DNA of 32,090 nt from a virus. Lineage: Duplodnaviria; Caudoviricetes. Below are positions 5,902-19,230 of this stretch, piece after piece (the first letter of the stretch is position 1; each line of letters begins with the position of its first letter). Made by a program: the position numbers and the translations under genes. A model generated the notes under the pieces. It did not search any database. It was not told the DNA's origin and saw only the letters and a list, made by a program, of their open reading frames with translations. Location of the stretch: positions 1-32,090 of the IMG/VR virus record IMGVR_UViG_3300010359_000009, one strand, 5' to 3'.

Positions 5902-6897
5902 TCATCCGTCAATCCGGTCGAACAGTGTCGGACCCGCATACTCGCCACCATCAGTATCATCTACCCGTTTCATATTCATCACCGCCTGGCGGTGATAGGA
6001 AGGCTTCAGTTCGATGCTGATCGCTCGACGGCCCTGCCGGACCGCGCAGTACGCGACGGACCCGACGCCGCCGCACGGGTCGACCACCAGCTCGCCCGGA
6101 TTACTCCACAGAACGAGACAGCGGTCGATTACGTCTCGCTGCAACGGATGAGGATGCTTCTCGTCCTTATCCTCCTCGGCCTCCTCGAAGGGGAGGACGC
6201 GATCCAACCGGATATCATCCCAGAATGCCGATGCATAGCGCTGCCAGATGATGTGTGAAAATTTGTTCTGAATCTGATTTCCCGACCATCCCCGAAATGG
6301 GAGGACGTCGGGCGGCAGTAGCCGCTCACCGTAGTACTCAGTAAAGCCAGTGGGATGCTCGATCGGGACCGGATTGCTGCCGCGCTTACGGAACACGAGA
6401 AGATAGTCGGCACCTGCATTCGAGCATCGCGACGAGTCGTCCACGACCGATTTATGAGCCAGTGATTTCGTCATCGTCCTGTTCCGGACTGCGAGCGGCT
6501 CCTTCCAGATATGGTACCGCGCGATGTAGCCGAAGCCGCGATCCCTGTGCAGGCGGATGATATCGCCCGGGAAGTCGGTCAGCTCATCCTTCCCCGTATT
6601 GCCTGTCGGCACATCCATGCAGTGCACTGCGGTAATCCGTCCCGGCATTGTCACCCGATGCAACTCGGTCACAAGATAGGAAAACTGCTCAAAGAACTCA
6701 TCGTAAGTTCGAGCGTTACTCATGTCTCGGTCACTGGACGAATAATTGTAGAGCGCGCTGCCGCCTTCTTTGGCAAACGGCGGAGAGTAGATACTCATGC
6801 CCACCGACTCATCCGGCAACCCCGGGAGGACCTCCATATGGTCACCGTTATATAGCGCGTAGCGATCCTCGACTACCTGGTCGAACACGAGAGCCAT
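5902..6897 (-). CDS. N4-cytosine/N6-adenine DNA methyltransferase (beta class)
   Basis: Catalytic SPPF near the N-terminus; HPHPLQ and SAM-binding VVDPCGGVGS near the C-terminus; SIELK. Confidence 0.9.
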   Translation of the reverse strand: MALVFDQVVEDRYALYNGDHMEVLPGLPDESVGMSIYSPPFAKEGGSALYNYSSSDRDMSNARTYDEFFEQFSYLVTELHRVTMPGRITAVHCMDVPTGNTGKDELTDFPGDIIRLHRDRGFGYIARYHIWKEPLAVRNRTMTKSLAHKSVVDDSSRCSNAGADYLLVFRKRGSNPVPIEHPTGFTEYYGERLLPPDVLPFRGWSGNQIQNKFSHIIWQRYASAFWDDIRLDRVLPFEEAEEDKDEKHPHPLQRDVIDRCLVLWSNPGELVVDPCGGVGSVAYCAVRQGRRAISIELKPSYHRQAVMNMKRVDDTDGGEYAGPTLFDRIDG

Positions 6898-8297
6898 GAG
6901 GGCAACTCCATTTCTCTGTCGAAGGGGTTGGAGCGCTGGATTGACAACGCCTCGCGCATATGGCGCGTCAGGGAGTCGAACATGCGGTCAGCGGCAGCCG
7001 CCTTACGCTGGAGATTGGCCAGCATATTAGCGCTACCCTCCGAGGATACTACATCCACGATCACCGGGTTCTGCTGACCGAACCGCCAGCACCGACGGAT
7101 CGCCTGATACCACGACTCGAACGAATGCGACGGCATGTAGGCCACCCGATGGCAGTGCTGCCAGTTGAGTCCCCATGCTCCGATCTTCGGCTTGGTGACG
7201 AGCACGCGGATCTCGCCGCGACCGAAAGCGGCCAGCTTCTCCTCCTTGGCCTCTACCGGATCGGAGCCACTGACCTGCACAGCGCCGTCAATAAGCTTGG
7301 CCAGCCTGTCGCCCTCGGCATTCAGATGGCACCACGCCACGGCCGGTTTCGCATCGGCCAGCACTTCGGCCGCCTTCTCACATCGCACCTGCAGCGTCCT
7401 GCGGGCTTCTTCGCGCTCCTCGTGCAGGCCGCTGGCCGGCATGTCGAACAGAGTGCCTTCCTTCGGTACTGCGGCCTGCACGACATGGTGACGATATTCT
7501 AGGGGCGGTAGCACGAATCCCTCATCGCTGAACTCGCCGAGGTCGCTCGGCTTGCGGCACGCTCTAGCCCAGCTTGACACCCAGCGCCAGAACGGATCCT
7601 CAGCGTGTCCCTTGAATCGCCACGCCGGGCCGTCCTTGAAGTGCATCATGGCGCCGTTCTTTGTGCGCGTACCGTCGATAGCCCAGCGGCCATACATATC
7701 CACCGTCTTTTGCTTGTTGACAAAGAATCTTGTCAGCATATCCACTAAACCGAGGTAGCCGAGGGCCTCGGAGGACGTCCCCAGCTCGGTGTAGTCATTC
7801 GGTGCTGCCGTCGCCGTGCCGAGCAACCGGTACGGCATGCACCGCATAAACTCAGTGACAATCTTACGTCGCTTGCCGTCGAATGCCTTGATCGCGGAGG
7901 ACTCGTCGCATACCACACCGCCGAACGCAGCCGAATCGAATTTCTCCAGCCTCTCGTAGTTCGTCACCGTAATGGCGGCCGGAATCGAACCGTCGCGAGA
8001 CACGGCTAGGTCGATTCCGAACTTATCCGCCTCCTCCTCGAACTGGAATGAGACAGCGAGGGGAGTGAGGATCAGCACGGGCTTACCTGTATGCCGGTAA
8101 ACATTCTCCGCCCACACAAGTTCCATGATCGACTTACCAAGTCCGCAGTCGGCGAAGATCGCAGCCCGGCCCTGCCTGATCGCCCACTCGTCCAGGTTTC
8201 GCTGAAAACCGAATAGGAAGTCCGGCAGCCATAGCGGCTCGAAACCATTACCAGTATTGAACTGGCCGCGCGCTGCAATGAACTCGTCATAGTTCAC
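6873..8297 (-). CDS. SF2/SNF2-like helicase
   Basis: FADCGLGKS (motif I), DESS (II), TAT (III), GLNWQ (V), QAIRRCWRFGQ (VI). Confidence 0.9.
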   Translation of the reverse strand: MNYDEFIAARGQFNTGNGFEPLWLPDFLFGFQRNLDEWAIRQGRAAIFADCGLGKSIMELVWAENVYRHTGKPVLILTPLAVSFQFEEEADKFGIDLAVSRDGSIPAAITVTNYERLEKFDSAAFGGVVCDESSAIKAFDGKRRKIVTEFMRCMPYRLLGTATAAPNDYTELGTSSEALGYLGLVDMLTRFFVNKQKTVDMYGRWAIDGTRTKNGAMMHFKDGPAWRFKGHAEDPFWRWVSSWARACRKPSDLGEFSDEGFVLPPLEYRHHVVQAAVPKEGTLFDMPASGLHEEREEARRTLQVRCEKAAEVLADAKPAVAWCHLNAEGDRLAKLIDGAVQVSGSDPVEAKEEKLAAFGRGEIRVLVTKPKIGAWGLNWQHCHRVAYMPSHSFESWYQAIRRCWRFGQQNPVIVDVVSSEGSANMLANLQRKAAAADRMFDSLTRHMREALSIQRSNPFDREMELPSWLSCSTR

Positions 8298-17193: not shown

Positions 17194-17235
17194 GCTTGGT
17201 GTAGCTACAGCCTATCCGCTGTAGCTACACCAAGC
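17194..17235. promoter_or_regulatory. Perfect 18-bp inverted repeat, candidate operator
   Basis: GCTTGGTGTAGCTACAGC-ctatcc-GCTGTAGCTACACCAAGC; each arm contains the palindrome TGTAGCTACA; abuts an AGGAGG RBS. Confidence 0.75.
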
Positions 17236-17246
17236 AGGAGGCCCTG

Positions 17247-17474
17247 ATGACCACCACGACCCGTGTCGAGTGCACCTGTAAGATCTGTGCCGCCAACGCC
17301 GTGAAACTGAACCGACTAGTCCTAGCTGCCGAGATCGCCACCGCTGGCGTTCAGCGCCTCGGTCGTAACGGCAAGTTGTCTAAGCAGGCTATCCACGGCA
17401 TCGTGCACGCTGCGAACCACCCGGTGCTCGGCAAGGCTCTGGCCAAGCACCGTACCGCCTACTGGGCGGCCTGA
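17247..17474 (+). CDS. Small basic hypothetical protein (CxCxxC)
   Basis: AGGAGG RBS; plus-strand island. Confidence 0.8.
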   Translation: MTTTTRVECTCKICAANAVKLNRLVLAAEIATAGVQRLGRNGKLSKQAIHGIVHAANHPVLGKALAKHRTAYWAA

Positions 17475-17475
17475 T

Positions 17476-17637
17476 ATGGCTACTACTCCCACTCAGATCC
17501 GTATCCCGTACGACCTGAAAAACAGGGTCCGGGCAAAGGCTACCGCGCAGGGGCTAACCCTTACCGACGTGGTAATTTGGGCATTGACGGAGTACGTGAG
17601 TCTTGCTGAGCACGGCAAGGGCGATCCGAAGCGCTAA
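17476..17637 (+). CDS. Ribbon-helix-helix protein, 53 aa (not in ORF track)
   Basis: MATTPTQIRIPYDLKNRVRAKATAQGLTLTDVVIWALTEYV...; starts 1 nt after the upstream stop. Confidence 0.75.
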   Translation: MATTPTQIRIPYDLKNRVRAKATAQGLTLTDVVIWALTEYVSLAEHGKGDPKR

Positions 17638-18967
17638 CATCCAGTAGGTACCGCACAGCGGCCTCGCCCTGTTGCGGTACCACGCCGTTGCCGAGCATCT
17701 TCAGCGCCTCGTTACGGCCGACACCGGGCACGGCGGTGACCCATCCCTCGGGCAGGCCCATCATCCATTCGACGAAGATCGGCGAGAGCTGCTTGCCGCC
17801 GCGCTTGCCCAGCATGGTCGGCGCTGGCGCTGGCCTGCCTAGCCGTCCCCCCCATCGTCGAATGGCGGGTCCATAGGCCCCCCAATCCAGAAAATGTCCA
17901 GTAGCGTCTGCCCTGAGTGGTGCTTGCTGTCGGGATTCGACCGTCCGGACGTCGCATTGCGCGCCCCGTTCGCGTCCGTAGCTACTGGCGTCGGCAGTAA
18001 TGCCCCAGTCGGGGGGTGCTCCTTGCGCGCCATGGTCTCCAGTGATTCCCGCACCGGTCCCACTCGACCCATCGAGCCGCCCTGATTGCTCCCGTAGGTG
18101 GATGCAGTCGGCGTCGGCAGGAGTCGATGGATCGTCTCGCTCAGCGGTCGCCCCGTCTGATCCTCCCATCCAGCTCCCCGAATCCCATCCCGCGCCGTTG
18201 GTGTCGGTAGTAGCGTGGCCGTTACGTCTTGCAGGGTCACTGAGTGACCGCCAGATTTCCGCTTCTCCGGATCCTGCGGACCGCCCCGGTCCGAATCGTA
18301 TGCCCCGGGAGTGGGTAAGAGCTGATCGATCTGCGCCTCCAGCCGACCCCTGGCCTGCCGAGTTGATCGCGTATAGTTCCCTACCCCATTCGCCGATGAG
18401 GTTCGTGGAGTGCCCAGCAGGCCATGCAAGGATGAAGACTCGGTATCGTCCATGGGGGGCTCCGACGTCGGCAGCGCGTAGGCCACACCATCGCGTGTCA
18501 TACCCGATGTCGGCCAGGTTGCCGAGAACGCAGCCGAGTGCCCGCAGAGGGGCTGCTCCGTCGTCTCCCACACACCACGTACAGGATTCCAGAACGCCAG
18601 TGGCGTGCTGTGAGAGGATTCCGCGAACATTTTCTATCACCACCAGATCTGGTCGGAGTACGTCAATTGCCGTGGCCATATGCGACCATAGACCGGAGCG
18701 CGTTTGCGAATTGAGGCCAGCGCGCTGGCCAGCCAGTGAGATATCTGTGCAGGGAAATCCGCCCGTCAGGACGCTCACGCGCGGCACTGCTGACCAGTCC
18801 ACCAATGATATATCACCGAGATTCGGCACCTTCGGATGGTGATGCTCGAGCACCCGGCATGCGGCAGGTTCGATCTCCGAAAACCACGTAAGGTGCCCTG
18901 GGAGGACTCGCTGTACGGCCATGGTCAGGCCGCTATAGCCCTCGAACAGTCCGCCGTAGGTCAGCAC
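17561..18967 (-). CDS. C5-cytosine DNA methyltransferase (catalytic frame)
   Basis: Motifs I LFEGYSG, IV GGFPC, VI IENV, VIII PHGRYRVF, IX FVEWMMGLP, X LGNGVVP. Confidence 0.92.
   Translation of the reverse strand: MLTYGGLFEGYSGLTMAVQRVLPGHLTWFSEIEPAACRVLEHHHPKVPNLGDISLVDWSAVPRVSVLTGGFPCTDISLAGQRAGLNSQTRSGLWSHMATAIDVLRPDLVVIENVRGILSQHATGVLESCTWCVGDDGAAPLRALGCVLGNLADIGYDTRWCGLRAADVGAPHGRYRVFILAWPAGHSTNLIGEWGRELYAINSAGQGSAGGADRSALTHSRGIRFGPGRSAGSGEAEIWRSLSDPARRNGHATTDTNGAGWDSGSWMGGSDGATAERDDPSTPADADCIHLREQSGRLDGSSGTGAGITGDHGAQGAPPDWGITADASSYGRERGAQCDVRTVESRQQAPLRADATGHFLDWGAYGPAIRRWGGRLGRPAPAPTMLGKRGGKQLSPIFVEWMMGLPEGWVTAVPGVGRNEALKMLGNGVVPQQGEAAVRYLLDVSASDRPCRAQQDSRTPSMPKLPRR
17839..18630 (-). 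CDS. Nested out-of-frame protein with five LLxTP repeats (putative methyltransferase specificity subunit)
   Basis: 263-aa ORF inside the MTase; repeats LLGTPRT, LLPTPGAYD, LLPTPTARD, LLPTPTAST, LLPTPVATD; GGTGGTG upstream of ATG. Confidence 0.75.
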   Translation of the reverse strand: MFAESSHSTPLAFWNPVRGVWETTEQPLCGHSAAFSATWPTSGMTRDGVAYALPTSEPPMDDTESSSLHGLLGTPRTSSANGVGNYTRSTRQARGRLEAQIDQLLPTPGAYDSDRGGPQDPEKRKSGGHSVTLQDVTATLLPTPTARDGIRGAGWEDQTGRPLSETIHRLLPTPTASTYGSNQGGSMGRVGPVRESLETMARKEHPPTGALLPTPVATDANGARNATSGRSNPDSKHHSGQTLLDIFWIGGPMDPPFDDGGDG

Positions 18968-19230
18968 GAGGCACCTGCATCCGCGATCACCTGGTCGATC
19001 GCGTCGGCCATCCGGGCCGCGGCAGTAGCATCGCCGACCGTCAGCTCAAACTGGACCGTCAACAGCCGTGCCGCGCCGTCTGCTGACACCACCAGCTCAT
19101 TGAGTTCGCTGATGCTGGCGCCGAATAACACGGTCAGCAGTTCGCTGGTGAGGCGCTCCAGGCCGACGCGATCGAGATCCAGCGGACCGTAGATCCACGC
19201 CTGACGACCGTCACCGCCGAAGCTGGGCAA
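18961..19230 (-). CDS. Hypothetical protein
   Basis: GGAGG upstream; overlaps both neighbours. Confidence 0.55.
   Translation of the reverse strand: MPSFGGDGRQAWIYGPLDLDRVGLERLTSELLTVLFGASISELNELVVSADGAARLLTVQFELTVGDATAAARMADAIDQVIADAGASC

Follow-up and report, generated by a model that had tools for sequence, protein, structure and literature searches.

The closest described relative of the locus reported here is M.EcoHK31I of E. coli HK31 (YGGCCR), a C5 methyltransferase whose second chain is nested in another frame of the same gene and made by internal initiation, as described in the accessible portions of PMC2836561 and PMC3404938. In the accounts available, motif IX lies on the nested chain, and the published prediction puts the TRD on the alpha chain (PMC2836561, PMC3404938); N-terminal deletions of the beta chain weaken association stepwise, and protection drops from truncation 37 on (PMC2836561, accessible portion). 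M.AquI (CYCGRG) is a further C5 enzyme that naturally consists of two chains, divided within the variable region, and C5 target recognition lies between motifs VIII and IX (both from the available part of PMC3404938). The multispecific C5 enzymes of Bacillus temperate phages give protection against several host restriction systems, according to the available part of PMC12707154. A phage C5 family encoded in two frames is not described in the open-access literature that we searched. None of the seven open-access papers naming EcoHK31I concerns phages by its title or the start of its abstract; no comparable overlap was found in the accessible part of the Sinorhizobium LM21 paper, and the Tweety phage paper, in its accessible part, merely lists methylases.

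The window analysed here is a stretch of 32,090 nucleotides from a virus of the Caudoviricetes, with Pfam matches to the phage genes RecT, YqaJ, sliding clamp, helicase, N6/N4 methylase, HNH and terminase. The best matches of its terminase are Rhodococcus and Mycobacterium phages, at 32-35%, and the sole sequencing run containing the window DNA is a soil metagenome; judged from these sequences, the host is likely actinobacterial. Pfam reported no restriction family among the ORFs adjoining the C5 gene, and an HNH ORF lies 1.1 kb past its 3' end. On the same replication arm, a second methyltransferase gene (N6/N4, PF01555) and a helicase-like gene overlap (5902-6897 and 6873-8297, minus strand). 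A small plus-strand operon (17247-17637) ends in a gene for a 53-aa Arc-like, ribbon-helix-helix repressor (17476-17637, PHROG E 7.9e-06), which converges on the C5 methyltransferase gene and overlaps its last 77 bases in antisense. In phage Kenuha5, too, a gene annotated as ribbon-helix-type overlaps the methyltransferase gene convergently; a strict pattern finds a convergent Arc-like ORF in 2 of the 138 related loci introduced below. Eleven nucleotides ahead of the operon stands a perfect 18-nt inverted repeat with a 6-nt loop (17194-17235) and the palindrome TGTAGCTACA inside each arm, which could be an operator pair for the Arc-like repressor, or a terminator.

The outer gene of the locus comprises the following features.

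17561..18967, minus strand: outer gene, alpha chain, C5 DNA methyltransferase (GTG start, 468 aa; Pfam PF00145 and PHROG DNA methyltransferase families)
18749..18754, minus strand: catalytic Pro-Cys of motif IV, residues 72-73, intact and invariant in 73 rows
18626..18634, minus strand: motif VI (ENV, GAA AAT GTT), read from the sequence, holding the inner ATG at 18630
17894..18412, minus strand: outer linker, residues 186-358, the -1 reading of the modules, stop-free (conservation and stop counts)
17633..17893, minus strand: C-terminal block with a WG.Y..AIRRW segment and motifs IX and X (phrog_1008 positions 221-323)

The original prediction had read motifs I, IV, VI, VIII, IX and X around a featureless, G/S/A-rich variable region, and this description holds. 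The alpha chain runs through motifs I-VIII (I, LFEGYSG; IV, FPC at 71-73; VI, ENV at 112-114; VIII, PHGRYRVF), a 173-residue linker rich in G/A/S/D, and motifs IX (LSPIFVEWMMGLPEGW) and X (LGNGVVPQ). Pfam DNA_methylase (PF00145) covers residues 7-182 with E 3.9e-29, and TIGR00675 scores 96.8 bits, slightly below its cut-off of 100.65. A model made for a relative (L194), not for the window's own chain, adopts the C5-methyltransferase fold with core pLDDT above 90 and a Foldseek match to M.HhaI at E 3e-18. With motifs I, IV (PC), VI (ENV), VIII, IX and X in order, the alpha chain is by sequence a C5 cytosine DNA methyltransferase.

Nested within this gene is a second ORF in the +1 frame.

17839..18630, minus strand: inner gene, beta chain (ATG start, 263 aa; phrog_1008 positions 68-210)
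18638..18644, minus strand: GGTGGTG, a putative ribosome-binding site 7 nt ahead of the inner ATG, spelling the outer codons L-V-V
18427..18630, minus strand: conserved beta head, residues 1-68, overprinted on outer motifs VI-VIII (conservation; pLDDT 73-91)

The original prediction had noticed five modules of the form LLxTP...L in the beta chain, together with the ATG formed by the codons of motif VI and the GGTGGTG upstream of it, and all of these are present; the modules follow the 68-aa head, the best-conserved part of the chain, which the prediction had passed over. Two stops (TGA TAG) shut the inner frame just upstream of this start region. When the outer protein was randomly recoded with synonymous codons 20,000 times, the +1 frame stayed open in 0.7% of the recodings; recoding the inner protein 20,000 times left the outer frame free of stops under the modules in 4.1% of cases. 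The inner protein matches 225 phage records and has 1265 homologous proteins. Pfam and NCBIfam returned nothing for it, the ESM Atlas gave unnamed clusters only, with a recognition value under the reliable range, a PDB sequence search with the beta alignment (A2) gave 0 matches at E up to 10, and Foldseek with the low-confidence inner model (mean pLDDT 61) gave no match at E 0.001.

A nested ORF of this length might be open by chance, or might stem from a single gene that is broken or misassembled and carries compensating frameshifts. Long off-frame ORFs are favoured at high GC, and the same DNA also holds a 280-aa antisense ORF (18000-18842) with no PHROG or Pfam match. Assembly errors, which the original prediction had named as a possible cause, were checked against a second assembly of the probable source run: three Logan contigs, one of which spans the whole inner ORF, match window positions 17400-19100 with 0 differences and 0 gaps. 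Because this run is the probable source sample, the match tests the assembly and does not count as a second organism. The catalytic residues are intact, and the same arrangement occurs in 84 of 138 related loci, phage isolates among them. The broken, misassembled or chance-open reading is thus largely refuted already, and we regard it as very improbable.

Related loci were sampled through alignments of the inner protein (80 viral and 80 genome loci). As a guard against circularity, a further 80 were chosen on outer motifs I-V, which lie ahead of the overlap, with about 3 of the 64 parts of the collection scanned. Among the matches listed for this outer-selected set, 68 of the 80 have a head match at a loose threshold (lowest scores 13-20 bits), and in every one of the 47 loci that have all four blocks the head stands in the +1 frame. 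Four layouts were seen. In layout A, that of the window and of the sequenced phage isolates Darolandstone and MidnightRain, alpha carries motifs I-VIII, the linker and IX-X, and beta the head and all modules; in layout B alpha ends after VIII, and beta consists of head, modules and IX-X; in layout C the modules are divided between the chains; and in layout D, seen in 15 of the 80 outer-selected loci among the matches listed, beta carries motif IX and alpha motif X. The 138 non-redundant loci, drawn from 188 with strong head matches and layouts A-C, comprise 84 A, 38 B and 16 C. Where all four blocks are present (200 loci), IX-X is continuous with one chain in 194; the other six look broken, so any given copy can be dead.

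The possibility of a movable chain break was suggested by phrog_1008, whose first part matches the inner protein and whose last part matches the outer C-terminus. In a rapidly built, weakly resolved tree of motifs I-V (128 rows by 111 columns, with 60 of its 125 branches left open), layout D forms one side of a branch with support 99, and A, B and C are intermixed, with 21 changes by parsimony and strong branches forcing at least 3-4 for each; this tree shows that the layouts mix, not their order. Phages DotProduct (layout C) and Ovechkin (layout B) are 96.9% identical over 1114 aligned bases. Beyond a 2-base gap at the margin of the region compared, a 1-base insertion switches the layout between them, and a 108-base in-frame module also differs. 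From these comparisons, the chain break is movable: modules and motifs IX-X can sit on either chain, and a single inserted base switches the layout. The expectation that gain or loss of a module must keep both frames open thus applies to the window's layout only, since in 38 of the 138 loci the outer frame stops after VIII and beta carries IX-X.

Further variants were observed among the relatives. In phage Kingsley (L011, 855-2172), a 1-base insertion shifts motif VIII from alpha to beta, with all motifs kept across the two chains. In L194 (2498-3718), the sole such locus observed, all four modules stand in frame on the catalytic chain and the +1-frame head has decayed, which makes this locus a candidate return to a single chain. 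Streptomyces proteins, 89 of 120 of which have all outer blocks and in-frame modules, were considered as single-chain forms lacking beta and were ruled out from the DNA: the +1 frame is open over VI-VIII in all 78 parsed loci (of 81), and the head scores at least 20 bits in 67. In many Streptomyces loci (L103, L107, L112-L114 and similar ones) the alpha frame opens shortly before motif IV, with motifs I-III in another frame or missing. Beta-like chains match 203 plasmid records from several phyla, and the 20 matches listed have a single methyltransferase annotation or none. Four of the eight GenBank records examined annotate the outer gene alone, and the other four start a second gene downstream of the head; the family goes under the labels PHROG 1008 and, in SEA-PHAGES, 'DNA methylase'.

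The inner start is itself conserved, lying at most 25 codons from the head in 126 of 129 parsed loci. It takes one of two forms, an ATG in the AAT-GTN of ENV, as in the window, or a GTG/ATG 3, 7 or 8 codons on. Exactly one of these is present in 118 of 133 loci (47 + 71), both in 7 and neither in 8 (Fisher p 5e-20, with loci treated without correction for kinship). The background usage of Asn codons in these loci is AAC 407 versus AAT 68. The Arg codon upstream of the +7 start is AGR in 52 of 60 loci, against 7 of 53 in loci without that start, a choice that builds an AGAGG-like site. These features bear on the proposal that ribosomes produce one protein by shifting into the module frame after motif VIII and returning before IX. 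The frames do cross at natural domain borders, as such a mechanism would have it; however, two shifts would be required, and frameshifting leaves unexplained the head overlapping VI-VIII, the paired starts with their purine-rich Arg codons and the open linker, while M.EcoHK31I, as far as its accessible description goes, employs internal initiation. We therefore give frameshifting very little credence.

Selection was examined in each frame separately. Differences between class 1 modules fall 4718/3612/11385 on codon positions 1/2/3 of the module frame, concentrating at its third positions, and protein identity within this class is 0.80 in the module frame versus 0.44 in the outer frame, identity figures that favour the module frame as module classes were built on protein similarity. 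Read in the outer frame, the module DNA has an identity of 0.43-0.44 among layout A loci; for layout B, which does not use this reading, the value is 0.42. Stops number 310 among the 5907 outer-reading codons of layout B, and at that rate the 84 A loci should contain about 243; since layout A is defined by an open outer frame, the fair count is of loci with IX-X in the alpha frame. Of these 145 loci, 143 have an open outer linker, whereas the mean probability of its being open by chance is 0.078. A linker that is kept open yet is no more conserved than when it is unused points to a tether rather than a recognition domain. In the region of motifs VII-VIII both frames are conserved. By the starts, the module third positions and the stop-free linker, then, both frames are under selection at the sequence level. 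Together with the comparison of relatives and the complex prediction given below, this strongly supports the claim of two chains from two frames, and we hold it highly probable that two overlapping conserved genes make two chains.

The five modules of the beta chain are as follows.

18322..18420, minus strand: module 1 (LLGTP...GRLEAQI), class 28, 3 members
18214..18321, minus strand: module 2 (LLPTP...VTLQDV), class 1, 61 members
18124..18213, minus strand: module 3 (LLPTP...RPLSETI), singleton in this sample
18001..18123, minus strand: module 4 (LLPTP...ESLETMA) and a short spacer, class 4, 18 members
17887..18000, minus strand: module 5 (LLPTP...QTLLDIF), within the predicted interface, class 8, 14 members

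A single module profile recovers all five, four of which have class mates elsewhere; a repeat search at the DNA level over the modules found no tandem family. Modules occur in all 138 loci, 137 by pattern and one (L056, two modules) by eye. The 470 modules found by pattern, 1-7 per locus with a median of 38 residues, fall into 108 classes (62 singletons) and form 118 different strings, with 38 class pairs seen in both orders. This variation in repeat number, common library and shuffled order support the idea of a modular, expandable subunit. Classes are conserved at any array position and on either chain, on beta or, in relatives, in frame on alpha between VIII and IX. Same-class duplicates within a locus number 4 versus 33.8 expected (0 of 2000 shuffles as low), and similar module pairs within loci 0 of 722 versus 22 expected. 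The near-absence of duplicates indicates a repertoire of different functions and not tandem duplication, and is as would be expected if the modules were distinct specificities. Elsewhere, two more distant C5 genes with a +1-frame head have a different type of repeat, on beta (L238) or on alpha (L243), whose units by eye look nearer classical TRDs; in P0138 and P0205 the modules and motifs IX-X are joined, by fusion or by read-through, to a long C-terminal region (annotated PF12705 in P0138).

That these modules are TRD-like and confer multispecificity, as originally proposed, is supported by their position in the VIII-IX slot; against it stand the low-confidence fold of these Gly-rich modules and the result that SPbeta MtbP matched neither the module HMM nor alignment A5, so multispecificity stays a deduction from position and pattern. 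The two-chain enzyme could be real and its modules act jointly and loosely as one relaxed specificity, or be mostly inert passengers with one working. The last module alone is confidently placed in both models, and in the model of L194 three of the four modules have pLDDT below 50, with only the last at about 60-69, a picture that fits one module docked at a time but falls short of showing so. A single module is found by pattern in 10 of 137 loci. Inert TRDs exist in Bacillus phage C5 enzymes. For unrelated large phage C5 enzymes, relaxed CC specificity is described in the accessible part of PMC5537653. However, passengers or generic DNA grips need not differ from one another, so the avoidance of duplicates counts against both forms of this explanation, as do the third-position excess and the conservation of classes at any position and on either chain. 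We judge it unlikely, though of the alternatives it deserves the most attention.

The head could also dock on the enzyme while the modules bind proteins, such as host defence or replication factors, and not DNA. The lack of likeness to a known TRD (SPbeta MtbP compared), the short Gly/Pro-rich, low-confidence motifs and the absence of a solved relative in the PDB and Foldseek searches would suit such a role. But with its linker unconstrained, the enzyme minus modules has no candidate recognition region, and at least one module is kept in 138 of 138 loci, in relatives exactly in the VIII-IX slot. Protein binding is accordingly an improbable explanation, and recognition of DNA by the modules is the reading followed below.

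The association of the two chains was examined by complex prediction, which places the contact in the head.

18516-18481, minus strand: predicted docking strand, beta residues 39-50 (complex prediction)

Prediction with alpha 1-446 and beta gave a score of 0.83, versus 0.01 for the best of 3 controls; the mark used is reached by 116 of 157 solved pairs and 2 of 215 mismatched pairs, and at least 56% of contacts agree between runs. The top pairs set beta 41-46 antiparallel to alpha 157-161, W14 on alpha 148-152 and W39 on alpha 144; W14, W21 and G43 of the head do not vary across 104 rows. Beyond the head, only residues 196-248 of beta enter the predicted interface, covering the end of module 4 together with module 5. 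The partner has pLDDT 46-47 in the complex model, so its own fold is uncertain, and split-enzyme halves tend to pass this test through likeness to solved monomers. In addition, the same bases encode beta 45 and alpha 157/158; the resulting covariation could bias the model, and the pass may be inflated; the predicted register is antiparallel and not parallel, which speaks against this source. The beta head is thus predicted to dock on the alpha catalytic domain.

The head also resembles the association segment of M.EcoHK31I beta. Ungapped, residues 37-69 of that chain and 39-71 of the inner protein share 10 of 33 identities, a match without an E-value in which M.EcoHK31I beta 35-75 was read by eye from the primer tables of the PMC2836561 supplement. 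The shared positions are W37, S40, G41, M42, G46, T53, E55, P57, E62 and L69, with inner counterparts W39, S42, G43, M44, G48, T55, E57, P59, E64 and L71, respectively. Like M.EcoHK31I, the locus has a fully nested second gene with its own start in another frame, known here from sequence and conservation. The parallel drawn in the original prediction thus stands for the alternative-frame second chain but not for the division of motifs: the window keeps IX and X on the outer chain, so its beta is without a classical motif, and the M.EcoHK31I split, with IX on beta and X on alpha, is absent in the window and present in layout D. Also unlike M.EcoHK31I, the window beta bears five variable modules and the gene is a phage orphan. 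On sequence grounds, the locus is a variant of the M.EcoHK31I kind, with nested gene and association segment shared, motif IX placed differently and a module array added. The division of M.AquI (alpha I-VIII; beta variable region and IX-X) is likened by description only to the layout of 38 of the 138 relatives, whereas the window has IX-X on alpha and fully nested genes. With the multispecific C5 enzymes of Bacillus phages the locus shares its orphan state, its place in a replication region and several non-identical units in the VIII-IX slot. Those enzymes are single polypeptides, unlike the window's, where all five modules are on the nested chain; compared with SPbeta MtbP, the one member examined, the modules have no detectable sequence match and belong to a library of 108 classes in this sample. 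By analogy, the window enzyme may work like the Bacillus multispecific enzymes without belonging to them.

Taken together, these results suggest the following mechanism. Translation of one mRNA would begin at the GTG at 18967 and, independently, at the ATG at 18630, as the conserved starts suggest. Motifs I-VIII and X of alpha would form a SAM-binding catalytic domain, which IX would join from the far end of the long unstructured linker; here the motifs are seen in the sequence, and the fold is taken from the model of the relative. According to the complex prediction, beta 39-50 adds a strand next to alpha 157-161, and W14 and W39 pack on alpha 144-152. The recognition slot between VIII and IX would then be occupied by one module at a time, so that several different sites would be methylated; by analogy with the Bacillus temperate phages, the likely purpose would be to protect the phage DNA, as it replicates, against several host restriction systems. 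Arrays probably change through the exchange of in-frame cassettes at the LLPTP codons that modules share, and single-base indels would shift the chain break with no part lost. We consider it reasonably probable, if well short of settled, that the locus encodes a two-chain phage C5 methyltransferase in which a nested chain docks by its head and offers five alternative recognition modules, making the enzyme multispecific. The broader reading is more tentative, and we would place it slightly on the doubtful side of even: a widespread multispecific family in which a new class of recognition cassettes of 30-45 residues, from a library of at least 100, is borne on a +1-frame specificity subunit that adds a strand to the strand its own bases encode in the other frame, with a break that slides over VIII-X through single-base indels.

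If that reading is true, the cassettes would constitute a natural plug-in code from cassette to DNA sequence, and M.EcoHK31I would become a single example within a large dual-coded lineage. Behind many a phage or prophage gene now annotated as a single methylase there would be a second, needed gene; annotations would have to change, and unsuccessful attempts to clone these enzymes may find an explanation. As a large natural collection of very short C5 specificity units, the modules would be useful for predicting phage anti-restriction and for engineering methyltransferases. Cultured, near-identical phages such as DotProduct and Ovechkin, one base or one module apart, make the two-chain and one-module-one-site claims directly testable, and the locus clearly exemplifies long same-strand overprinting in which the chain break can move.
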